IMG/VR virus record: IMGVR_UViG_3300027708_000019
Length of the DNA stretch: 64,000 bases
From: a virus
Strand: one strand, 5' to 3'
Below, one piece after another: positions 1-27,904 of the stretch. Every line of letters starts with the position of its first letter. The first letter of the stretch is position 1. Below the pieces are notes generated by a model. That model did no database searches. It had not been told where the DNA came from and saw only the letters and a list, made by a program, of their open reading frames with translations. The position numbers were made by a program, and so were the translations under genes.

Positions 1-602
1 AAAATGCACTTGGTTGCGTTGCTCGTACTAATGCTTTTGCTGCTGACCAATCTGTTCAAGGTGGTGCAGTTCCAGGTGATTATGTTGCTACAAATTATGA
101 CAAAGGACATATGGCTCCAGATGGAGATTTGTCTTGGGATCCGCAAGTAGAGTATGAATCTTTTTTGATGACCAATATGTCACCCCAAGCTGGCTCTTTG
201 AATCGTGGCATATGGAAACTGTTAGAGACCTCTGTAAGAGGATGGTCCGTTCAAAGAAACCAATCGTATACGATTTATGTTGGAGGCATCTATGGTGCGA
301 CTGACAGAAAAATTGGTAATGGTGTTATCGTTCCTCATGGGTTTTATAAAATTGTAATTAACAATCAAACCAATGAAGTTGCTGGTTGGTCATTCCCTCA
401 TGTACCACCATACCCAAATTTGGGTAACGACTTACGTCCTTTCCGCAAACCAATCGCTGATATTCAGAAAGAAGCTGGTGTTAAATACGCATTCCCAGCT
501 GGCGCAATCGAACTTGCTCCAGGAAAAGAATGGCCAGTTGATTTTGGTGCACTAACAAAAGCAAAACGTGCTAAGTGTGGTGCAGGAGCAAACGATGACT
601 AA
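1..602 (+). CDS. DNA/RNA non-specific endonuclease (NucA/EndoG-like), 5'-truncated by window edge
   Basis: YDKGH just before track ORF start, then TNMSPQ..LNRGIW..LE and VPHGFYKIV motifs. Confidence 0.85.
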   Translation, partial: NALGCVARTNAFAADQSVQGGAVPGDYVATNYDKGHMAPDGDLSWDPQVEYESFLMTNMSPQAGSLNRGIWKLLETSVRGWSVQRNQSYTIYVGGIYGATDRKIGNGVIVPHGFYKIVINNQTNEVAGWSFPHVPPYPNLGNDLRPFRKPIADIQKEAGVKYAFPAGAIELAPGKEWPVDFGALTKAKRAKCGAGANDD

Positions 603-2674: not shown

Positions 2675-2825
2675 TCCCAACAAACAATAGTGTCAATTTA
2701 CAGAACCATGATTTTGGTCCCATAATTTCATCACGACCACTTGCCCACCCCAATCTCCAGTGGAAGGGGTTAACTACTATCGTGATGAAAACACCTGAAT
2801 ATTGAATCCATTTTGCTATTTTCAT
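2643..2825 (-). CDS. small hypothetical protein
   Basis: ORF coupled to clpP stop. Confidence 0.5.
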   Translation of the reverse strand: MKIAKWIQYSGVFITIVVNPFHWRLGWASGRDEIMGPKSWFCKLTLLFVGISVVIDDGSW

Positions 2826-3385
2826 TAATATAAATCCTTAACTTGATCACAAATCCCCAGTTTTAGTGCTTCTTTTGCACTCAACCAAACATCCTGAGGT
2901 GGGAGAAGTTTCTCACGGATAGATGGCTCATCTAGACCTGTGCACTTTTTATAATGTAACATAAGTCGTTTGGTTGTTAAATCATATTCTTTTACCGTAG
3001 CAATAAGTTCATGTTCTTTTCCGAACGAACCCCAACTATATTGATGCGATAGAATTGATGTATTTGGTGTAAGCAGACGATGTCCTTTCTCACCAGCAAT
3101 AAACATCAATAATCCAGCAGATGCAATTTGTCCAAGCCCAATAGTTCGGATTGGCGTAGCACTGCCTTTCATACAATCAATGACTGCGAAGGCAGCATTA
3201 AGATCGCCACCTGGAGAACAAATTACAAGATTAAGTAAATCGTATTGTTCTTCGCCCATGTTACAAGCAAAAATCCACTCAACAATCTGCCTACATGAAG
3301 TCATAGTAACTTCGTCCATAAATAGCAGAAAATTTTGTTTCGGGGCATTACCTGCATTCAAATTGATATTAAGTTTTTCTGTCAT
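2825..3385 (-). CDS. clpP: ATP-dependent Clp protease proteolytic subunit
   Basis: SPGG, GQIASAG (catalytic Ser), HQ, LSAKEALKLGICD motifs. Confidence 0.88.
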   Translation of the reverse strand: MTEKLNINLNAGNAPKQNFLLFMDEVTMTSCRQIVEWIFACNMGEEQYDLLNLVICSPGGDLNAAFAVIDCMKGSATPIRTIGLGQIASAGLLMFIAGEKGHRLLTPNTSILSHQYSWGSFGKEHELIATVKEYDLTTKRLMLHYKKCTGLDEPSIREKLLPPQDVWLSAKEALKLGICDQVKDLY

Positions 3386-3923
3386 TTATTGTAATCACTT
3401 TCGGGTCAGTATAAAAAATATGTCTTCCAATTTTGGTAGTTTTTTGTAACTTTGACCATCCTGGAGAGACATAGTCGGCATGATAATATATAGCACCCTT
3501 TGTTACATCATCAATAACTTGATAGTTGAAGTAAACATAAAGTGCCACTTGTCTTACATCATTATATAATTCTTTCTGTGTTGCTGATACAGCTTTCTTA
3601 CCTTCACAAAACCAAGTGAATTGGCACGTTGATTTTACTTTTTGTTTAACAACTCCGCAGACGCTGTCTTCAAACACGTTTGATTTGACACGATTTAATG
3701 TAACCAAACCTACTGCAATTTTGCCAGTCTCTGGTTCATAACCTGCTTCGTAAAATATATTATCTGTTAAACAGTCAATTTCCTTCTTCTCTTTTGCATT
3801 TAGATGTGTATATGGAACATCTACAATCTTTGTTCCTGCTTTTGAATTTTGCGTTGCGGTAAACAACAGTGCAACAAATAATATAATTGTTATTAAAATT
3901 GAAATTAGATATTTCAAAATCAT
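3369..3923 (-). CDS. cell wall hydrolase, SleB/Hydrolase_2 family
   Basis: N-terminal TM; CLTDNIFYEA, LNRV, CQFTW, YYHADYVSPGW, IGRHIFY. Confidence 0.88.
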   Translation of the reverse strand: MILKYLISILITIILFVALLFTATQNSKAGTKIVDVPYTHLNAKEKKEIDCLTDNIFYEAGYEPETGKIAVGLVTLNRVKSNVFEDSVCGVVKQKVKSTCQFTWFCEGKKAVSATQKELYNDVRQVALYVYFNYQVIDDVTKGAIYYHADYVSPGWSKLQKTTKIGRHIFYTDPKVITINDRKT

Positions 3924-3976
3924 CTCCTTAATTAGTTAAAGAGTAAGGGTGATGAAACCCCTACTCCAATCCCATA

Positions 3977-4261
3977 TCAGGTGGACTTCTTGATAGTAGT
4001 CTTTTCTTGTGTAGTTTGTGGGGATACGTTAGAAACAAAACCATTCAGCGTTTGTGCTTTGCTGATGATATCATTTTCTGATGGGAAGGCAGGGAATCCT
4101 GGATGATCAGGAATCGTGCCACCATTTAGTTTAGCAGATTCGACTTTCGTTTGCCAGTCGTTGCTAATTTGTTCACGTTTGCCGTAGTACTCATCGCTGA
4201 GCATATCTTTGGCCATTTTTAAAAGTTCGAGACGAATCTCAAAAGGTGTCATATTTGACAT
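3977..4261 (-). CDS. conserved phage hypothetical protein (MSNMTPFEIRLELLKMA type)
   Basis: AAGGAG RBS; TAAATA late-type promoter upstream. Confidence 0.7.
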   Translation of the reverse strand: MSNMTPFEIRLELLKMAKDMLSDEYYGKREQISNDWQTKVESAKLNGGTIPDHPGFPAFPSENDIISKAQTLNGFVSNVSPQTTQEKTTIKKST

Positions 4262-4338
4262 AGTTTTCTCCTTGTGTTGTGTGTAAAAAAATCAAATTGT
4301 GTGTTCATGATATAGACTATTATTTAGTCAAATGTGAT

Positions 4339-4368
4339 ACTGGGAAGACGAATCTTCCCAGTTTTTTT
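4339..4368. terminator. intrinsic terminator-like hairpin
   Basis: ACTGGGAAGA-CGAA-TCTTCCCAGT followed by T run; UUCG loop on minus strand; lies just after porin stop. Confidence 0.65.
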
Positions 4369-4373
4369 ACGAA

Positions 4374-4940
4374 TTAAAACGATCTAGTATAAGATACGTA
4401 TGTTCGATTAAAAGCATTATCACCATTTACATCATCATAGCCAAGAGAGATACTGTCTTTCTTGGTAATAGCATAACCCAATGAGTAACGAATTGAGTTT
4501 GTTGTATCTGATTTATCAGAAGCAAATGCTGTACGGAAACGATAACCAAGTTTAGCAGTCAAACCTTCAACTGGAGTTTTAACAATAACTCCTGGCTCTA
4601 CTGAGTAGTAAGCGAAATTCTTACCACCAGTAATACGCTCACCAACAGCACCACGTGCGTAACCAGTAATAAAGTTATCACCGATCAATCCCATTTTGCC
4701 TGTAACACCAGCTTCATAACGTGAGGAAACTGTATTTGCAGAATCAGTAGCTGTGTTTAGAATGCTAACATCACCATCGATTTGTTTTGTTAGAGATGTT
4801 TTAACATCTAACTTGTACACATCACTCATGGCTTTACTAGAATCTGCTTCTTGACGTCCATAAGTTACTGTTGCTGAAGTGTCGGCGAATGCCATTGAAG
4901 ATGCAGCGAGCAATGCTGCTGCGATTAGTTTTAATTTCAT
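4374..4940 (-). CDS. outer-membrane beta-barrel / porin-like protein
   Basis: Signal peptide (AFA), alternating amphipathic strands, C-terminal YxxxF BAM signal. Confidence 0.7.
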   Translation of the reverse strand: MKLKLIAAALLAASSMAFADTSATVTYGRQEADSSKAMSDVYKLDVKTSLTKQIDGDVSILNTATDSANTVSSRYEAGVTGKMGLIGDNFITGYARGAVGERITGGKNFAYYSVEPGVIVKTPVEGLTAKLGYRFRTAFASDKSDTTNSIRYSLGYAITKKDSISLGYDDVNGDNAFNRTYVSYTRSF

Positions 4941-8651: not shown

Positions 8652-9335
8652 TTATTTAGTCAGGTAAGTGCGATTTAGCATAGTATGATTGTGGTCAGTT
8701 GGACCCCAATCGCCATCTGGGTGATAAGCCAAAACAACCATCTCTTGTCCAGTTGTGACAAATCTATGTTTCTCTTGTTGTTCTATACAGAAAATAGCAC
8801 CAGTTTCTAATTGAATACTTGTTTCTGTGATGTCACCATCATCATTTTTCCAAGGATTGATTGTAGCATAACCAGTTCCTCTCACAACTATACCAAATCT
8901 GATACTTGGGTGTGTATGATAAGACTGCTCAGTACCTTTCGGAAAATGTAACATATTCAATGATGGATCACCAAGTCTTGATGGATAGATTAGCAATGAA
9001 TCTGAACATCCATCAATGTATGATAGACGACCACGTTCTTCTAGTGGACCACCAATTATATTTTGCCCACGATATCCGATGCGTGTAAACACAGCAACCT
9101 TACCTACGTAAAATAGTTTTTCATGATCATGTGACCAGTAACAGAAATAATCTCCCTGCGTAGCAACTTTACCATTTGGGAAATTAACATCGCCTTCGAT
9201 CACATAACCATAGATTGTTGAATACTCTTTTGTATAAAAATATCCTTGGTCACCAATTTCATTAATGTCAAAAAGATTCGCAATAGATGGATACATAGTA
9301 TCAGATCTATCGATATATGTTTGTCCAGTAATCAT
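8652..9335 (-). CDS. cupin-domain protein
   Basis: HTHPSIRFG..GTG and HRF motifs. Confidence 0.7.
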   Translation of the reverse strand: MITGQTYIDRSDTMYPSIANLFDINEIGDQGYFYTKEYSTIYGYVIEGDVNFPNGKVATQGDYFCYWSHDHEKLFYVGKVAVFTRIGYRGQNIIGGPLEERGRLSYIDGCSDSLLIYPSRLGDPSLNMLHFPKGTEQSYHTHPSIRFGIVVRGTGYATINPWKNDDGDITETSIQLETGAIFCIEQQEKHRFVTTGQEMVVLAYHPDGDWGPTDHNHTMLNRTYLTK

Positions 9336-10453
9336 ATAAAAGAGTTATCCTTAATCAAAAATAGTTGTGGGTCCAGTTTGTCATGATAATTGTAGTTTTC
9401 ATCAATCGCAAACTTCATTGGTTTGGCATAACAGATACTGTTGAGATTATTACTGTCTACCTTATTTGTTATATAGTCGTTATCGTATAAATCCAAAATA
9501 TATTCTTTGGCTTGTGGCTTTCCTTCAAGTTTATTGTGATTGTTCATTGCCCATAATTGAAACACATCACTAGTAAAGAAGCCAATATAATTTTGTTCTG
9601 GAAATAATGTATCAGTATGTTCAGCAAAAGCAAGTAATCTTGTATAGGTTTTATCCCAACGCAAACACATATATAACCACCAGAAAAAATCTCTAAGATT
9701 TGTCAACTCAACAGGAGATTTAGCAGCAACCTGTTTCATGTAACCAATTAGTTTCTCTGTTTCTTCCTGTTCTCTAAACATATAATCGTCTTTTGTGTTT
9801 AGAAGAATCATTAAGTTATCATCTGTTACTGGCATTACCAAATCTCTCTCATCATACTGAGCAAGTTTTGTTGACCCAAAAATCTCATCGCCACCATGAC
9901 CAAATACGCATACATAATCTTCGCGACCAAGATAGTGTGAAAACAGAATCGATGGTAGTGACAAAAATTTACCAAGTATATTATCTTGATAAAACTTCTC
10001 TTGTAATGCAGTTTCTGATGTAGCGATGTAGATATCTCTACGTTGCGATATTGTTGTGTTCTTAATAAAGGCAGTTACCATTGCGGTACTGTCAATACCA
10101 CCACCATAAAACAGAATCAATTTTTGATTTGGCTTTAAATTTGATAGAATTAGTATTGCTCTGGCATCACAACATTCTTCAAATGTGTAAGAAACTTTAG
10201 TGTATTCAGGAAGTGGAGAAATTGATGTTGTGTTGAATGGTGTTATCAAAGTATTTGTTCTGTCATGAACAGCACCATTGCCACCAAAGTAGTAAGAAAA
10301 TTTATAGAAGTTTTCCATTCCTGGAAAATTTGGGAACATAGATTCACTGAAGAATTTATGTTTTGTTATGTGGCGATTGATACCATAGTTATAGTAACGT
10401 GTGTCATAGAAAACTTCAGCAGTGTTCAAAAAGATCAGTTTAGAAGTTTGCAT
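9332..10453 (-). CDS. asparagine-synthetase-like PP-loop ATPase (paralog 1)
   Basis: YGGGIDST PP-loop and GHGGDEIFG motif; no N-terminal Cys glutaminase domain. Confidence 0.6.
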   Translation of the reverse strand: MQTSKLIFLNTAEVFYDTRYYNYGINRHITKHKFFSESMFPNFPGMENFYKFSYYFGGNGAVHDRTNTLITPFNTTSISPLPEYTKVSYTFEECCDARAILILSNLKPNQKLILFYGGGIDSTAMVTAFIKNTTISQRRDIYIATSETALQEKFYQDNILGKFLSLPSILFSHYLGREDYVCVFGHGGDEIFGSTKLAQYDERDLVMPVTDDNLMILLNTKDDYMFREQEETEKLIGYMKQVAAKSPVELTNLRDFFWWLYMCLRWDKTYTRLLAFAEHTDTLFPEQNYIGFFTSDVFQLWAMNNHNKLEGKPQAKEYILDLYDNDYITNKVDSNNLNSICYAKPMKFAIDENYNYHDKLDPQLFLIKDNSFI

Positions 10454-10976
10454 AAAGGTAAGACTCTTTTATCAGTTTATTATATGTGTCGTTTACTTCA
10501 ATCAAAGAAGCGCACTCTTTAATTTGTTTTGTAAATCTGTATTTGAATCTTTCGATTTCTTCTTTTCTACTGTTAGTAAAAGAATTAGATTTCCAGTTCC
10601 CATTCTCTGCACCAATTTGATCAAATTCAGCATCAGTCATTTTATATAACATATCAAGGCAAGCTGCTTTCTCGCTGAGGATTACCAGTCTATACATCTC
10701 TTGATTGTTTCTGACATTTCTTCTTGTGATTACACCTGTGTTTAATTTAAACACAAAACCATGAGGTAGGTTTGGATTGCAATCTAATGGGAGTTTGTGA
10801 TTCGTGTTGATATTTGTCCACAATTTTGTATTGTGATCCATCATATTGGTAACAGTCTCTAAATGGTTTGAAAGGCAGATAAATCTGCCAGTATTTGCTT
10901 CAAGTACAGCGTGTATTTTAGAAGACTTGTTAATTATATTTGGAATTAAATTATAATTTTCTAGTTCATACTTCAT
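10440..10976 (-). CDS. hypothetical protein, partner of PP-loop enzyme 1
   Basis: Overlaps both neighbours; likely start MKYELEN. Confidence 0.6.
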   Translation of the reverse strand: MKYELENYNLIPNIINKSSKIHAVLEANTGRFICLSNHLETVTNMMDHNTKLWTNINTNHKLPLDCNPNLPHGFVFKLNTGVITRRNVRNNQEMYRLVILSEKAACLDMLYKMTDAEFDQIGAENGNWKSNSFTNSRKEEIERFKYRFTKQIKECASLIEVNDTYNKLIKESYLYANF

Positions 10977-11508
10977 TAGCAATCCAAGATGGTTGTTCAC
11001 GATTTTTCCAAGAGAACATTCTTTGTTTGTCCCCAAGGTAGTAATTCATATAAGATTTTATTGAATTACCAGCTACTTTGTATTTATCTGGCATCGCAGG
11101 AGTTGGTTCAGTAAACTCGCCTTTTGGAATTTTATAAGGAACACGACGAAGTGGAATTATCAATTTCTCACATGCGTGTACCTTGTTATATCGATAAGTG
11201 TATTCATCCATCAATTCACGCCACATCACATAGAGCCAATCATAATTTTTATCAGATTTCCTTACCCAAATAGCGGAAGGGTGATTGATATGGGTAGCAC
11301 TATACAAAATGCCATCACGATTGTCAGAAAGTTCATATCGTGTCTGTTTTCTTCCAGATTTAGATAGACCAACAATTTGTATACCATCAAGAACACGATG
11401 AGCAGTAGAAAGAAGTTGTGCATATTCTAGAATCATCTTTACGCAGTGTTTATCGACATGCATTTCTGCACAGGTTTGGGGATCATTATCAAGATAAAAA
11501 ATATTCAT
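10966..11508 (-). CDS. pyrimidine-dimer DNA glycosylase-like protein (DenV-related family)
   Basis: MNIFYLD, DKHCVKMILEYAQLLSTAH, THINHPS. Confidence 0.75.
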   Translation of the reverse strand: MNIFYLDNDPQTCAEMHVDKHCVKMILEYAQLLSTAHRVLDGIQIVGLSKSGRKQTRYELSDNRDGILYSATHINHPSAIWVRKSDKNYDWLYVMWRELMDEYTYRYNKVHACEKLIIPLRRVPYKIPKGEFTEPTPAMPDKYKVAGNSIKSYMNYYLGDKQRMFSWKNREQPSWIANEV

Positions 11509-22183: not shown

Positions 22184-23509
22184 TTATCTAAATTCGGTTC
22201 TCGAATCAGGCATTACAACATTCGTTGGTTTTGGTGCTTCCGAATTTATATGGACATGGGAATCTTCTTTCTTCTCATCAAAAGGATCTTTTGGGTTGAA
22301 GTCAGAATTTAATTGTTCTGGGTCAAGTTGAAAAGTTGTTTCTGGTTCTTCGTTAACATACAACATTGGTTCATTTGTGTTATCTGTTTTTGAAAAATAT
22401 TCTTTGACAACTTTCTTAAATTCCTCAGGCACTTCTTTCGGTGGCTCAGGAATTAACCATGTGTCTTTTGCTGGTTCTTCAACTGCAACTGTTTCAACTT
22501 TTTGTTCAGTTTGTAGTTGGTTAAGAGAATCAACAATTTGACTCCAGTATTTATTTTGATCGTCCTCAGTTTCCTCATCACTTTGTTCTTCATCCGTCTC
22601 ATCTTGTTCCTTTAATTCAGTTGTTGTTTCATAATACCATGAAGGACTTACAGATTCTTCAGGACGTACCATCGGAAATGGGAAAGTAGGTAAATGCGAA
22701 TCTTCCTCTTCCTCATCAGCTTCCGCTGGTTCATCAACTACTTTAATTTGTTCATCTTCAGGTTTTCTGTTTAGCATTTCTCTATTTGCTGCAATCAACA
22801 TCAACACAGCCATAGGATCAAAAACAAAAACAATCAGAAGAATAACGATACGAACTGATTTCTCTAGAATAGTATCGTCAAGAACATCTCCGTAGATTAA
22901 CGCTGCGATGTATTTGATCGGACCGACTTCGGCTTCGACTTTGCGGAGTTCGCTCGCGACTGGGGCACGCTCTTCGTTGTACTTGGCGATTTTGGCTTGC
23001 GAGGTTTGGATTTCGTTGAGGAGACTGTTTCTTTCTTTGGCTTGACTTCTACGGATGGCGACGGAGCGATCGGCTCCACGATCATCTGTGGTTCTTGCGA
23101 GGGTTTGGTCAACTTGTGAATCCAGTTGAGAAATTGCTTTACGAGCTGCATCGACATTATCCTTTTCTGTTTTAATTTTCTCGTTGAGAATTGCTATCTT
23201 AGATGCCACATCTCCAGTTGGAACTGCTTGGTCTAAGTGCGCTTTACTTAGGTATCCGAAAATACCCATGCTTGTTAGTAGCATTAGGATGACAAGTGCC
23301 GATGTGAAGTAAGTCTTCAATAACATCGGTGCTGTCTTCCAATTTCTATATAGCCATGATGCAGAAACCAATTTACTTGCTTCTAAAATTGATCCCATCA
23401 CAGCGATAGGAATAACTGCTGTTGAGAAAATAGCAATCAATCCCATCACAGAATAATACGCTGCTACTGCGGACAATGCAAAACCGCATGTAAATAGTAG
23501 GTATATCAT
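22184..23509 (-). CDS. multi-TM coiled-coil membrane protein with acidic tail
   Basis: 3 N-terminal TMs, GYLSKAH, coiled coil, EVGPIKYIA, TM FDP, acidic C-terminus. Confidence 0.7.
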   Translation of the reverse strand: MIYLLFTCGFALSAVAAYYSVMGLIAIFSTAVIPIAVMGSILEASKLVSASWLYRNWKTAPMLLKTYFTSALVILMLLTSMGIFGYLSKAHLDQAVPTGDVASKIAILNEKIKTEKDNVDAARKAISQLDSQVDQTLARTTDDRGADRSVAIRRSQAKERNSLLNEIQTSQAKIAKYNEERAPVASELRKVEAEVGPIKYIAALIYGDVLDDTILEKSVRIVILLIVFVFDPMAVLMLIAANREMLNRKPEDEQIKVVDEPAEADEEEEDSHLPTFPFPMVRPEESVSPSWYYETTTELKEQDETDEEQSDEETEDDQNKYWSQIVDSLNQLQTEQKVETVAVEEPAKDTWLIPEPPKEVPEEFKKVVKEYFSKTDNTNEPMLYVNEEPETTFQLDPEQLNSDFNPKDPFDEKKEDSHVHINSEAPKPTNVVMPDSRTEFR

Positions 23510-23895
23510 TTTTTTATATGCTTCCTGTGTGTTTTAATCATAATCCATTCATTATAATAATTATCGTCTAAAAGTACATTTAAGTCAAATTGGAATTTTG
23601 CTTCCCAATAATTTGTATTACCTCTAGTTGGACACAACATCAATATTTTGCGAGAAAAGTTCTCGACACCATATTTATTGATATCTTCAATTAGGACTTT
23701 GTTCGAACCCCAGTAATCACGCCAATTACTCTCTACCCTTGTTCTTTTCTTTTTACCTTTTACTTGTCGTGTTTTTGCTTCGGTAAAATACTTCCGACCG
23801 ATATATTTCTTACCAGTCAGATTATTTGTAATCTCGTAGATGAAACCATACCAATCACCAGCATCTACGAATGGTTCGTTATTGTGGTGCCACAT
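23506..23895 (-). CDS. GIY-YIG endonuclease (endonuclease II-like)
   Basis: GFIY..TN..KKYIGRK, YWGS, YYN motifs. Confidence 0.8.
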   Translation of the reverse strand: MWHHNNEPFVDAGDWYGFIYEITNNLTGKKYIGRKYFTEAKTRQVKGKKKRTRVESNWRDYWGSNKVLIEDINKYGVENFSRKILMLCPTRGNTNYWEAKFQFDLNVLLDDNYYNEWIMIKTHRKHIKK

Positions 23896-24025
23896 CGGTG
23901 GGTGGCGCAGGTGGAGGTGTTGGTTGAGCACCTTCTGCTTGTGCGGTGTCCATTGAGGAACCCTGTGGGTTTTTTAATTTGCTAAACCAATCATTACCTT
24001 GTAGTTCGCTTGGGTTTTCTGCCAT
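23879..24025 (-). CDS. 48-aa Pro-rich peptide
   Basis: Manual translation MAENPSELQGNDWFSKLKNPQGSSMDTAQAEGAQPTPPPAPPTDVAPQ; GAGG RBS; starts 2 nt after upstream stop. Confidence 0.55.
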   Translation of the reverse strand: MAENPSELQGNDWFSKLKNPQGSSMDTAQAEGAQPTPPPAPPTDVAPQ

Positions 24026-24027
24026 CT

Positions 24028-25125
24028 TTACCTCATAAAACTGTTATTGGGAACATAGAATTCATTTGGATCTAAATCATAAATGTATTCATATTCACTA
24101 CTTAGTGCTACTGGTGTATCACGTTGTAGAAACAGTTTGTATAGGCTACCAGCTTTCATTTTAAAATCTCTATACTCTTGGTCTTTAGTATAGTCATAGA
24201 TAACTTCTTTGGCATGGAATTTATAAGATTCCCAGTTATGTTTAATCTTCAACTGTTTGTTTGACATACTCCAAATCTGAAAGTAATCTTCAGTAAAAAA
24301 ATGATGGAAATATGTGTTAACAAAATCTTTATCAATGTTCTTACGAATTGTTTTATCAACACGCAATATCATTCTGAAGAAAACAGATTGCCACTTAAAG
24401 TTGAAGTTGTACCACCAGAAAAAATCAAATACAGTTTTGATTTCACAAGGTGCTTGTTTTCCATGCTCGTGTAATATTTCATACCAAACATTTGCGAATG
24501 GTTCTGTTAAACCACGCTGCATAAAATAATCAACTACAATTTCTCTAGTATATGGCGAATGAATGATCTCAAAACTAAATCGATTCTTGAAGTCTCCGAT
24601 AACATCAGTACCAAACAATTGATCGTTGTGTTCACCACCAATAATCAAATACTTCTTATCAAAGTAAAGTGTCATTCTGTCACTTGGCTTGACTGTTAAT
24701 TTTCCACGAATGTGATTTTGATAGAAGTTTGGATTCTCACGAATGCTATCCATACTCATGACAACAACAAGTCTATCGCGATCTGACTCAGGGATTACTT
24801 TTAAAAATGATACTAGAACAAGAGTTGAATCAATACCACCAGAGTAAAACACATAAAGTGGTAAGTCCATTTGTTTTGACTTCTCATATAATTCAGTTGC
24901 TCTTTTCTCGCAACATTGTTCATATGTTAAATCATATTTACTTAAATCTGTTGGCATAACATTTGGTTCATACAGTTTAAATCTGTATGGCATAATAACA
25001 CGCTCTGAACGATCAACTAGACTTACGTTCAAGTTGATCATTTCATAAATGCTACCCCACTCAGGACATCCAGCAGCAGGATGTTCTCTAAGAATATCGC
25101 AGTTGGCAAGATATAATTCTTTCAT
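24028..25125 (-). CDS. asparagine-synthetase-like PP-loop ATPase (paralog 2)
   Basis: YSGGIDST and GGEHNDQLFG motifs; clear similarity to 9332-10453. Confidence 0.62.
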   Translation of the reverse strand: MKELYLANCDILREHPAAGCPEWGSIYEMINLNVSLVDRSERVIMPYRFKLYEPNVMPTDLSKYDLTYEQCCEKRATELYEKSKQMDLPLYVFYSGGIDSTLVLVSFLKVIPESDRDRLVVVMSMDSIRENPNFYQNHIRGKLTVKPSDRMTLYFDKKYLIIGGEHNDQLFGTDVIGDFKNRFSFEIIHSPYTREIVVDYFMQRGLTEPFANVWYEILHEHGKQAPCEIKTVFDFFWWYNFNFKWQSVFFRMILRVDKTIRKNIDKDFVNTYFHHFFTEDYFQIWSMSNKQLKIKHNWESYKFHAKEVIYDYTKDQEYRDFKMKAGSLYKLFLQRDTPVALSSEYEYIYDLDPNEFYVPNNSFMR

Positions 25126-25757
25126 CAGCAATGCGCATTTCTAACCAAAGCATGACAGGCATCTTTAAATCCTTGTCTTAATTCATCTCTGGTTGATAGT
25201 TTATTAAATTTGTCAACATAAACACCAAACCATGCGAAATTTCTCATCTTGATCAACCCACTGGTTTCAAGCATGAGTGTAAGTTCTTCATATGCTGTTT
25301 TGTTGGAAATATTGTGAGCAGATGCATATTCAACTATACCATTAGCATATGTATCTGTCTTTGGATCACTGGCTTCCATATCTTTAATCAGGAATGCCAT
25401 AATAGATTCGTCAAAATATAAGACGGATCTTTCATTTTGTCTACGGAATTGTTCTTCTAAAGCATGAATGTAATGGGCACGAACAGAAGCAATTTTCTTG
25501 CGATCCATATACTCTTTGGTTATCAACAACTCTGGCATATAACCAATCCAAGTATCTTGTTTTGGTGTGAGTCTCAGCTTGTCTTTTTCAAAGTCAAACT
25601 GTTTAAGTTCTTGAGCAACCGAATCGATCTCTATTGGTATAACAACAACATCAGTGTTAATCATTCCTTTAGAAACTGCGATAGCAGTAGTAAATGATTT
25701 TGGTAATGCTAAGATCGCTTTAGTTGATACATCAATTACGGTATATAAAGCACTCAT
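25125..25757 (-). CDS. hypothetical protein, partner of PP-loop enzyme 2
   Basis: TGATG overlap with downstream enzyme gene. Confidence 0.65.
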   Translation of the reverse strand: MSALYTVIDVSTKAILALPKSFTTAIAVSKGMINTDVVVIPIEIDSVAQELKQFDFEKDKLRLTPKQDTWIGYMPELLITKEYMDRKKIASVRAHYIHALEEQFRRQNERSVLYFDESIMAFLIKDMEASDPKTDTYANGIVEYASAHNISNKTAYEELTLMLETSGLIKMRNFAWFGVYVDKFNKLSTRDELRQGFKDACHALVRNAHC

Positions 25758-25906
25758 TCTTCATCATCAATTAGTTCTTCTTCCTCATATATATCGCTGC
25801 CACAAAATGGACAATATACGATATCGTTTTTGGTATAGTCGCCTTCTTTAAATTTTATGCTGCCATGCGCTCCGCAGCTTTCGCAATCAAAATGTTTAAG
25901 TGCCAT
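25754..25906 (-). CDS. small zinc-ribbon protein (50 aa)
   Basis: Manual translation with CESC..CPFCG; coupled to nrdB stop. Confidence 0.65.
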   Translation of the reverse strand: MALKHFDCESCGAHGSIKFKEGDYTKNDIVYCPFCGSDIYEEEELIDDEE

Positions 25907-26889
25907 TATGCCCACACCTCTCCCCACTGACCAGATAACGCACCTTTAGCGTAGTCAGTAGCACGATTTTCAAAAAAGTTTGTATGAGTCGGTGCATTAA
26001 TCATTTCTTCTACCCATGGTAGTGGGTTTTTCTTAACTTTGAATATTCCTTTTAAGCCAAGAGAAATTAAGCGACGATCTGCGATGTAACGAATATACTG
26101 TTTAACATCTTCTGGTGTTAACTCTTCCATAGCACCCATAGAGAATGCCAAGTCAATAAATTTTTCTTCAAGAGAAACCATTTTCTCAGCGATAGTATAT
26201 ATCTGAGATTTCAAATCATCATTCCAGATTTCTTTGTTTTCTTCAATGTATGTTCTAAACAATTTAATCATTGATTCAGCATGCATTGTTTCATCAACAA
26301 TAGACCATGTGATGATTTGTCCCATACCTTTCATTTTGCCATGTCGTGGAAAATTCAACAACATAATGAATGATGAGAACAACTGCATACCTTCAGTAAA
26401 AGCAGAGAACGCAGCAATATTTGTTGCTACTGATTCCATTGTACCATTCTTATTTGAAAGATCAACAAAGTAATCGTGTTTGTCTTTCATTTCAGCATAT
26501 TCCAAAAACTCATTATATGTTGTTTCTGGCATACCAAGTGTTTCAATTAGGTGTGAGTAACCTGCAACGTGTAATGCTTCTCTTGCTGCGAATCCCATCA
26601 ACATCATTCTTATTTCTGGTTGTGGGAAGTATGGTAGGTAATTCTTCACGTATCCTCCCGCCACATCCACATCCCCTTGGACAAAGAATCGCAGAATGTT
26701 TGTAAGGAAGTGTTTTTCTTCTTGTGTTAATTTCTTTTTCCAATCTTTGACATCCTCCATCATTGGTACTTCTGTGTGTAACCAGTGGGCTTGTTCATGT
26801 TTTAACCAAGCATTATATGCCCACGGATAATGGAATGGTTTAAAGGAACTACGCTCATCTGTTAATTTTAATTTTGTTTTTTTAATCAT
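25906..26889 (-). CDS. nrdB: ribonucleotide reductase class Ia beta subunit
   Basis: EALH..Y, EG, DETMH, NFFE. Confidence 0.95.
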   Translation of the reverse strand: MIKKTKLKLTDERSSFKPFHYPWAYNAWLKHEQAHWLHTEVPMMEDVKDWKKKLTQEEKHFLTNILRFFVQGDVDVAGGYVKNYLPYFPQPEIRMMLMGFAAREALHVAGYSHLIETLGMPETTYNEFLEYAEMKDKHDYFVDLSNKNGTMESVATNIAAFSAFTEGMQLFSSFIMLLNFPRHGKMKGMGQIITWSIVDETMHAESMIKLFRTYIEENKEIWNDDLKSQIYTIAEKMVSLEEKFIDLAFSMGAMEELTPEDVKQYIRYIADRRLISLGLKGIFKVKKNPLPWVEEMINAPTHTNFFENRATDYAKGALSGQWGEVWA

Positions 26890-27253: not shown

Positions 27254-27904
27254 TTATTTCTCCGTAAGTTCATTAACAAAATTCAACAATAGATCATGGT
27301 GTTTTCCACCATTCCAGTATTTGTTTATATACTGCCATGGTTTCTCATACCAATATAAAGGTGCTTCTGGATGACAACCAATTATTCCAACTCTTCCTTT
27401 GATGATCGCCATCGGATCACCATTAGCATATCTAGCGATTGTTTTGAATTTGGTTTCATCACCAATCAAAGCACAACCATCATAGAAATACATTTTCTCT
27501 TCTTGTCCATTCCAAGTAACAGAAGCTACTGTACCAAAACTTCGTTTGACTCCAGCATTTGGTCTTTTGATATATTGAACAGCACGAACATCTTCAATTA
27601 TGTCAAGATACCATTGGTCAGCCCAATAAGCACCCATACATATACCAAGATAATACCCACCATCTTCAATAAACTTGGCTATTCTATTTCCAGTTCTCCT
27701 AGTAAAAAACTTATAAAAAGAATCAGAATCCCCAAGCCCACCAGGAAAAGCAACAATATCAACACCATTAAAAAAATTAACATCTTCTATATCCTTCTCA
27801 TTAAATGTTTTTACATTATAATTTGAAGAAAGAGATTTCGTCATTGCTTCTACACAATCTTCAGAACACTCTGGATCATGTAAAAAAAGTGCGATGGTTT
27901 TCAT
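27254..27904 (-). CDS. class I glutamine amidotransferase-like protein (BPL_N family)
   Basis: FPGG, YLGICMGAY (Cys), HPE triad. Confidence 0.75.
   Translation of the reverse strand: MKTIALFLHDPECSEDCVEAMTKSLSSNYNVKTFNEKDIEDVNFFNGVDIVAFPGGLGDSDSFYKFFTRRTGNRIAKFIEDGGYYLGICMGAYWADQWYLDIIEDVRAVQYIKRPNAGVKRSFGTVASVTWNGQEEKMYFYDGCALIGDETKFKTIARYANGDPMAIIKGRVGIIGCHPEAPLYWYEKPWQYINKYWNGGKHHDLLLNFVNELTEK

Follow-up and report, generated by a model that had tools for sequence, protein, structure and literature searches.

What does a phage make with an enzyme of the asparagine synthetase (AsnB) class that carries no glutaminase domain and is encoded together with a separate protein of no recognizable family? 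The question is raised by two overlapping minus-strand genes, one for a 210-amino acid (aa) protein (the partner) and one for a 365-aa enzyme, in a 64,000-nucleotide stretch of viral DNA (IMG/VR record IMGVR_UViG_3300027708_000019), here called the window. The source is an uncultured freshwater phage of ~168 kb with T4-like gene content (nrdA/nrdB, RNase H, PhoH, DenV, and thyX-like and primase-like open reading frames (ORFs)), and megablast with an 8.5-kb query found no close relatives of it in the phage collection. A preliminary description of this DNA, made from the sequence alone, had read the two genes and a 48-aa ORF behind them as a three-gene cassette after nrdB, and the coordinates, lengths, motifs and position it gave for the three ORFs are correct. 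We find that partner and enzyme are a conserved two-gene unit to which the 48-aa ORF does not belong, and that the enzyme, by its modeled fold and motifs, is a glutaminase-less PP-loop protein of the AsnB synthetase type. Enzymes of the AsnB kind are already known; new here is a form that is coupled to a partner, lacks the glutaminase domain and is mostly viral. The pair most likely adenylates a carboxylate and converts it into an amide or a lactam, and a small organic acid is our first choice of substrate.

A conserved pair of partner and AsnB-type enzyme

The enzyme gene (24028..25131, minus strand) encodes 367 aa from a TTG start or 365 aa from the ATG at 25125, the latter form being identical to database protein P0001. 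Its PP-loop, YSGGIDST, occupies residues 96-103, and a second motif, GGEHNDQLFG, residues 165-174; the AsnB counterpart of this GGE..D..FG motif is SGEGxDExFG. In an alignment of 38 relatives with a mean column identity of 52%, the PP-loop residues Y96, S97, G98, G99, D101, S102 and T103 are invariant, as are most residues of GGEHNDQLFG (the H and some flanking positions vary), and further invariant residues include several lysines and positions in a Trp-rich FFWWxNFxFKWQ block. Searches of Pfam, PHROG, NCBIfam and PADLOC with the enzyme, the partner, the 48-aa ORF and a second module in the window (its cupin aside) brought up no more than a weak resemblance to DndC in the PP-loop. PDB searches by sequence, with the enzyme and with its profile, returned just noise and the PP-loop of LarE.

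An AlphaFold2 (AF2) model of the enzyme, with a predicted local distance difference test (pLDDT) score of 93, was compared with ~48,000 PDB representatives using VIA-align. All of the top five matches, with 201-267 residues aligned, belong to the AsnB class: TsnB9 (Z 12.7), human ASNS (11.9), beta-lactam synthetase (11.2), the carbapenam synthetase CarA (10.0) and E. coli AsnB (9.2). Scores then fall to 6.5 or below for other PP-loop enzymes, and Foldseek agrees weakly with the AsnB class. AsnB has an N-terminal glutaminase domain of the N-terminal nucleophile (Ntn) type, with its catalytic Cys after the initiator Met, and in the beta-lactam and carbapenam synthetases a vestigial N-terminal domain forms part of the substrate cleft. 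The studied enzyme lacks the glutaminase domain, since its alignments with ASNS and AsnB start only at target residues 138-177, beyond the greater part of the N-terminal domain of those proteins. Those with the beta-lactam and carbapenam synthetases begin at target residues 130-155, so that their N-terminal domain is likewise absent, and only ~60 residues precede the helix ahead of the enzyme's PP-loop. No GATase (glutamine amidotransferase) family of Pfam matches the enzyme, and a search for fused forms among homologs of 644-2000 aa gave none, although this is weak evidence.

Judged by the Pfam gathering score, Asn_synthase (PF00733) does not match the enzyme either, and 13 of the 38 relatives give sub-threshold matches, the best with an E-value of 0.0033. 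The preliminary assignment to the synthetase-domain type without glutaminase is borne out by the fold matches, and the lack of both a glutaminase domain and an Asn_synthase match agrees with its view that this is not an ordinary asparagine synthetase. The family shares with AsnB, beta-lactam synthetase, CarA and TsnB9 the SGGxDS PP-loop and the synthetase fold, these being its only strong fold matches, and differs from them in the missing N-terminal (pseudo)glutaminase domain, a sequence below Pfam thresholds, a Trp-rich C-terminal half, an obligate separate partner, a mostly viral distribution and multiple copies per genome.

The partner gene (25125..25757, minus strand) lies directly upstream of the enzyme gene. 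An AF2 model of its product (pLDDT 94) shows a small alpha/beta N-terminal domain (residues 1-75) with a long helical bundle behind it, a fold distinct from the N-terminal domain of the beta-lactam and carbapenam synthetases and without a meaningful match in the PDB, where only generic helical bundles were found (Z at most 8.5 over at most 79 residues; Foldseek E-values of at least 0.04). With just such generic matches, homology of the partner to an Ntn glutaminase domain, or to the recognition element (RRE) of ribosomally synthesized and post-translationally modified peptide (RiPP) pathways, is unsupported. A helix-turn-helix-like spacing noticed by eye in its YA....I....A..EI block is backed by no fold match.

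Word-based searches with the partner yielded only four relatives, yet its place and its length are kept: a homolog stands immediately before the enzyme both in a related phage (40% identity) and in a chromosome of Oxalobacteraceae (24% identity, E-value 1e-13). We assembled 21 bacterial and 77 viral loci, searched them with an iterated partner profile and merged loci at 70% enzyme identity into 61 groups. A partner stands directly upstream of 94 of 128 enzyme ORFs, in most cases overlapping by 4 nucleotides (nt), and in 52 of the 61 groups, across phages, Bdellovibrionales, bacteria of the candidate phyla radiation (CPR) and Oxalobacteraceae. In a search of 1.84 billion representatives the profile found 848 clusters at 50% identity, 544 of them at an E-value of 1e-10 or better; the 150 matches listed are all standalone proteins of 185-275 aa, none of them fused, and nearly all are matched to within a few residues of the C-terminus. 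The family evolves fast, with no invariant residue and a mean column identity of 24%, and its median isoelectric point (pI) of 7.0 does not suggest nucleic-acid binding. Pairwise identities among the enzymes and among their partners correlate with r = 0.887 over 73 pairs, a value that none of 300 permutations reached; because neighboring genes have a common history, the correlation demonstrates joint inheritance and divergence of the two genes, not contact between the proteins.

The window itself contains a second module on the minus strand, in which the gene for a 198-aa partner (10440..11036; iterated partner profile E-value 3.8e-22) overlaps the start of the gene for a paralogous 373-aa enzyme (9332..10453), followed by a cupin gene (8652..9335; Cupin_2 E-value 3.7e-8). 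The second enzyme is 28% identical to the studied one (BLASTP E-value 6e-36; 147 bits with the enzyme hidden Markov model), and its PP-loop reads YGGGIDST, Gly replacing Ser; the similarity between the two partners goes undetected by BLASTP alone. Phage genomes hold two to four copies of the module, and a close relative (locus L001) carries two consecutive partner-enzyme pairs, preceded by a desaturase-like gene and by the Zn-ribbon gene also found before the studied pair. More than 417 relatives of the enzyme occur in a metagenomic protein set, and its clusters in the ESM Atlas are ~90% viral and labeled 'hypothetical proteins'. In the literature on AsnB-like phage enzymes we found no description of the family, and to this extent the system is undescribed, as the preliminary description had supposed. 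The pair is one of the larger wholly uncharacterized phage enzyme systems and is also found in predatory Bdellovibrionales, CPR bacteria and Oxalobacteraceae.

Some relatives deserve separate mention. A 231-kb IMG/VR record (G003, behind locus L085) has four enzyme matches, two of which (173159-174256 and 101533-102543) are interrupted by one in-frame stop each (TAA, TGA) and may be pseudogenes, sequencing errors or cases of recoding. The sole cultured-phage relative found by tblastn of the enzyme is in Pseudomonas phage Cygsa01 (PP179332.1), where two tandem genes at 2682-4831, beside a tRNA gene, are labeled 'tRNA-specific 2-thiouridylase MnmA'. The one tested, of 318 aa, is a distant, shorter member of the superfamily (hhalign probability 98.7% over 252 columns), and the 278-aa product of the gene two positions upstream gave no match to the partner profile.

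Small genes and recurrent neighbors

In the studied locus, five tightly packed minus-strand genes fill the space between nrdB and the gene for a 441-aa membrane protein. Downstream of nrdB they run, abutting or overlapping, in the order Zn-ribbon protein, partner, enzyme, 48-aa ORF and SegE-type GIY-YIG homing endonuclease; the first and last of these had been left out of the preliminary description. The gene for the ribonucleotide reductase small subunit, nrdB (25906..26889, minus strand), is the upstream anchor of the variable region and was identified through PF00268 recorded on the syntenic gene of L001; Ribonuc_red_sm gave an E-value of 4.5e-75 as its best among the scanned neighbor proteins, which include the copy on a 99%-identical contig (L025). 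Stop and start codons overlap as TAATG between nrdB and the Zn-ribbon gene, ATGA between the Zn-ribbon and partner genes, and TGATG between the partner gene and the enzyme ATG. The ATG of the 48-aa ORF lies 2 nt past the enzyme stop, with GAGG 5 nt before it, and the endonuclease (23506..23931, minus strand; PF19835, Pfam E-value 1.4e-34) likely starts at an ATG near 23895, within the 3' end of the 48-aa ORF. A scan for promoters and terminators gave no excess of promoter-like sites over shuffled sequence and about twice as many terminator-like sites (9 vs 4.7); none was taken as a transcription-unit boundary inside the array.

The 48-aa ORF (23879..24025, minus strand) is a real small gene, because substitutions show purifying selection in its frame: the ratio of nonsynonymous to synonymous polymorphism (pN/pS) is 0.28-0.34 there, vs 0.5-1.0 in frame +1, and frame +2 closes after a few codons. 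The N-terminal 22 residues are conserved and the tail is variable and rich in Pro and Ala. Homologs at the same position, one full-length (L026, 69% identity) and one partial (L030), bring its distribution to three close lineages, and a search of the phage collection gave no match to it. L001, L027, L029, L031 and L043, where the endonuclease directly follows the enzyme, lack it, as do all distant loci; where present, it always sits between the enzyme and the homing endonuclease. The ORF is therefore tied to the homing-endonuclease junction and is neither a component of the module nor a conserved substrate, and the proposed three-gene cassette reduces to two genes. Of the co-occurrence in homologous loci on which the preliminary description had hinged its proposal, the half that concerns the partner stands and the half that concerns the peptide falls. 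Its remark that the peptide lacks a clean lasso precursor pattern agrees with our reading of the sequence, in which we saw no lasso-type core.

The Zn-ribbon gene (25754..25906, minus strand) encodes 50 aa, a C4 ribbon with an acidic tail that ends in Glu (...EEEELIDDEE). Its score of 17.4 bits with Zn_ribbon_LysW is below the cut-off of 27, and other Zn-ribbon families of Pfam also match weakly. The LysW carrier combines a Zn-ribbon domain with an acidic tail ending in Glu and is served by a dedicated ATP-grasp ligase (LysX/ArgX); the studied protein has a LysW-like layout, without an adjacent ATP-grasp gene. We considered it as a general component of the module and rejected this, since it lies directly upstream of the first partner gene in 11 of 102 loci, all from one close phage clade.

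Other genes recur around the module more widely; Pfam was also run on 146 operon-neighbor proteins from 60 locus groups, and the top 25 families were inspected. The commonest third gene encodes a cupin of ~219 aa, present in 25 of the 61 groups and usually directly downstream; its H142 and H190 are invariant, and H140, H205 and H217 are at least 90% conserved. A second, smaller PP-loop protein (SGGxDSE) occurs in 15 groups, an FA_desaturase-like membrane protein in 12, and a panF/putP-like Na+/solute symporter (SSF) in nine, six of its ten members coming from bacterial loci. Further recurrent neighbors are GNATs, TauD, Asp/Arg hydroxylases, a TctC binding protein, an acyl-CoA ligase and alpha/beta hydrolases. 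The studied copy consists of Zn-ribbon, partner and enzyme without the usual cupin, whose place is taken by the 48-aa ORF and the endonuclease. A cupin hidden in the close clade was considered, but the 212-aa protein of L001 does not match the cupin profile.

A sub-architecture recurs among phages (L065, 5161-9709; also L068, L072, L076, L078 and L056), with genes in the order 136-aa protein, radical-SAM/SPASM maturase-like protein (~480 aa), one or two unknown proteins of ~100-120 aa, partner, enzyme and cupin; L072 has two tandem partner paralogs ahead of a single enzyme. With the ~100-aa proteins encoded ahead of some partners, the partner profile gave no match. The closest bacterial operon is that of Duganella sacchari Sac-22 (L004/L104), whose enzyme is 48% identical to the studied one and which comprises desaturase, GNAT, partner, enzyme and cupin. 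At the head of Oxalobacteraceae operons (L104, 4673-4849; L003, 3605-3802) a 58-65-aa ORF is called whose shared C-terminal end reads ...GLPIG.P..G..PL.SP.LFGGK; the ORF may stand for a small precursor or leader, or the similarity may simply be that of conserved DNA in a GC-rich genome.

Chemistry and substrate of the pair

AsnB, beta-lactam synthetase and related enzymes adenylate a carboxylate and then let a nitrogen attack it, and enzymes of this fold make amides and lactams, antibiotic rings included. Adenylation followed by nitrogen attack is most likely also the chemistry of the studied enzyme because the PP-loop and the AsnB-type second motif are kept. The 365-aa enzyme would adenylate a carboxyl group, and a nitrogen nucleophile would attack the acyl-AMP to give an amide or lactam; as nucleophile one may think of free ammonia, of an amine or amino acid, or of an amine that the adenylated molecule itself contains, and the enzyme would draw no ammonia from glutamine itself because it has no glutaminase domain. 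We read the partner as a non-catalytic subunit because it has no invariant residue, is nearly always present, is translated in tandem with the enzyme and diverges with it; it may replace the lost N-terminal domain and shape or deliver the substrate. A small organic acid would be the first choice as substrate because the genes found beside relatives encode Na+/solute symporters, an orphan acid-binding protein, an acyl-CoA ligase, and oxygenases of the cupin, di-iron and 2-oxoglutarate (2OG) kinds. This picture of a two-subunit enzyme is our tentative preference. The identity of the substrate would probably reveal a new phage metabolite, nucleic-acid modification or protein modification, and would also make clear by what means a helper encoded apart from the enzyme stands in for the N-terminal domain that this branch of the AsnB class has lost.

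Several findings weigh against the two-subunit enzyme acting on a small acid. The studied copy has no accessory genes of its own within the 64 kb, where tblastn found no match to the FA_desaturase, GNAT, second PP-loop, radical-SAM or double methyltransferase proteins, so that the metabolic context is borrowed from relatives. The others are a phage enzyme that amidates DNA, methyltransferases and radical-SAM enzymes next to some modules, and a pair of conserved cysteines, each of which speaks for a different substrate or chemistry and is taken up here with the explanation it favors. The enzyme might instead amidate a carboxyl-bearing base in phage DNA or tRNA, the partner directing it to the polymer, which we regard as possible but doubtful. 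In the CmoA/CmoX/CmoY pathway, CmoA is the carboxy-S-adenosylmethionine (Cx-SAM) synthase and CmoX the cytosine C5 carboxymethyltransferase. SpCmoY of Synechococcus phage S-B43, an asparagine synthetase homolog, is a phage-encoded amide ligase that joins glycine to the carboxylated base 5-carboxymethylcytosine (5cxmC) in DNA (PMC12783734), and like the studied enzyme it is glutaminase-less. A fused double methyltransferase with a CmoA-like half adjoins some modules (at L006 the match of this half has an E-value of 6e-27, below its cut-off; a similar one is at L047) and points to nucleic acids, as does the largely viral membership of the enzyme family. CmoY, however, is 271 aa long, scores above the Pfam cut-off for Asn_synthase, and has CmoA and CmoX for neighbors and no partner gene. 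Its similarity to our family profile is confined to 15 PP-loop columns (hhalign probability 20%), and the profile finds nothing in S-B43. The window holds no homolog of CmoA, CmoX or CmoY and the 105 loci one weak CmoA-like match, the module also occurs in bacterial chromosomes beside solute symporters, and the partners are not basic.

A protein or peptide could also be the substrate, in a RiPP- or carrier-like pathway: the partner, with its C-terminal carboxylate amidated or used as a tether, the acidic tail of the Zn-ribbon protein, or the 48-aa peptide. In seven of the 61 groups the partner gene is immediately preceded by one for a radical-SAM/SPASM enzyme resembling peptide maturases, which points this way, as does the LysW-like layout of the Zn-ribbon protein. 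A motif-less partner that serves as second substrate of a PP-loop enzyme has precedents in QatC-QatB and Cap9-CdnD, in which QueC-like PP-loop enzymes modify the N-terminal Gly of a stably paired partner encoded next door (PMC13376578). The studied enzyme is remote from these in fold (Z 4.0 to Cap9 and 3.5 to QueC, vs 9-13 for the AsnB class). QatB-type partners insert a tail with a conserved Gly2, whereas our partner model has a beta-strand from residue 4, without a QatB-like N-terminal tail, and residue 2 among the 150 partners listed is mostly L, S, F, T or A, Gly not being in the eight commonest. At the other end, the partner C-terminus is fixed in the alignment and its tail, [ED]-x-[YF]-x-N-[AGS]-x-[VIL]-COOH, is moderately conserved, with V, I or L as the last residue in 99 of the 150 listed. 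This motif nevertheless fits only ~40% of those 150, further residues follow it in 12 of the 61 that fit, and in the model the C-terminus would lie in a confident helix (H190-208; last block pLDDT 85) rather than a free tail. The Zn-ribbon protein and the 48-aa ORF are in turn limited to one close clade and to three lineages. Lasso cyclases of the McjC type resemble the studied enzyme as AsnB-related, ATP-dependent, lactam-forming enzymes that work on a peptide with accessory proteins. A lasso system has a leader protease (B2), an RRE (B1/PqqD) and a precursor whose core combines Gly/Ala/Ser/Cys-1 with Asp/Glu-7..9; here, no leader protease of the B type and no PqqD-like RRE is among the top 25 neighbor families, and there is no conserved short precursor. 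Overall we regard a protein or peptide substrate, like a nucleic acid, as possible but doubtful. More specifically, there is an outside chance that the partner is a carrier whose carboxylate, plausibly the C-terminal ...N-A-x-V-COOH, is adenylated and then amidated or used to tether an amine-bearing intermediate; in the studied phage clade the acidic-tailed Zn-ribbon protein could fill this role instead. The cupin, di-iron, 2OG, radical-SAM/SPASM, methyltransferase and acetyltransferase proteins would then act on the tethered intermediate, in a phage-borne analog of LysW-type carrier biosynthesis or of peptide-derived cofactor pathways.

The same fold could support a different chemistry, such as ATP-dependent insertion of sulfur (a thio-carboxylate or thioamide) by way of vicinal cysteines. 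The adjacent C73 and C74 of the enzyme, in a YE.CC..RA motif, are at least 90% conserved and kept in distant paralogs, and we know of no role for vicinal cysteines in AsnB-class enzymes. Many PP-loop enzymes are sulfurtransferases, LarE, TtuA and MnmA are among the weaker matches, and the distant Cygsa01 homologs are auto-annotated as MnmA. Set against this, the fold is closest to the amide-forming AsnB class, with sulfurtransferases at Z of only ~5, the AsnB-type GGE..D..FG motif is kept, and the top 25 neighbor families include no sulfur-carrier or cysteine-desulfurase genes, which leaves sulfur insertion a slim chance. We think it very improbable that the pair is a toxin-antitoxin-like or defense/counter-defense system in which the variable partner neutralizes or regulates an enzyme that attacks a host component. 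The order of a small variable gene translationally coupled to a conserved enzyme behind it is antitoxin-like, the module is multi-copy in phages and it lies beside RHS toxin genes in Oxalobacteraceae, but PADLOC found no family beyond the weak PP-loop match to DndC, and a module that steadily keeps company with cupins, oxygenases, methyltransferases and transporters has a metabolic look. Were this simply an auxiliary metabolic gene for an ordinary asparagine synthetase, the fold class would be the same, and one bacterial homolog is labeled 'Asparagine synthase' in UniRef. The domain and Pfam results given above, together with an obligate partner and two to four divergent paralogs per genome, leave that explanation next to no chance.

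Further observations concern the genes next to the pair. Between nrdA and nrdB, 1.3 kb from the glutaminase-less putative amide ligase, a 216-aa GATase1-like protein (27254-27904, minus strand) matches BPL_N (3.7e-14) and, weakly, class-I glutamine amidotransferases. The SegE-type endonuclease matches PHROG 447 (3.7e-39), which is labeled 'NAD synthetase'; this label looks like an annotation error, perhaps derived from adjacent PP-loop genes.

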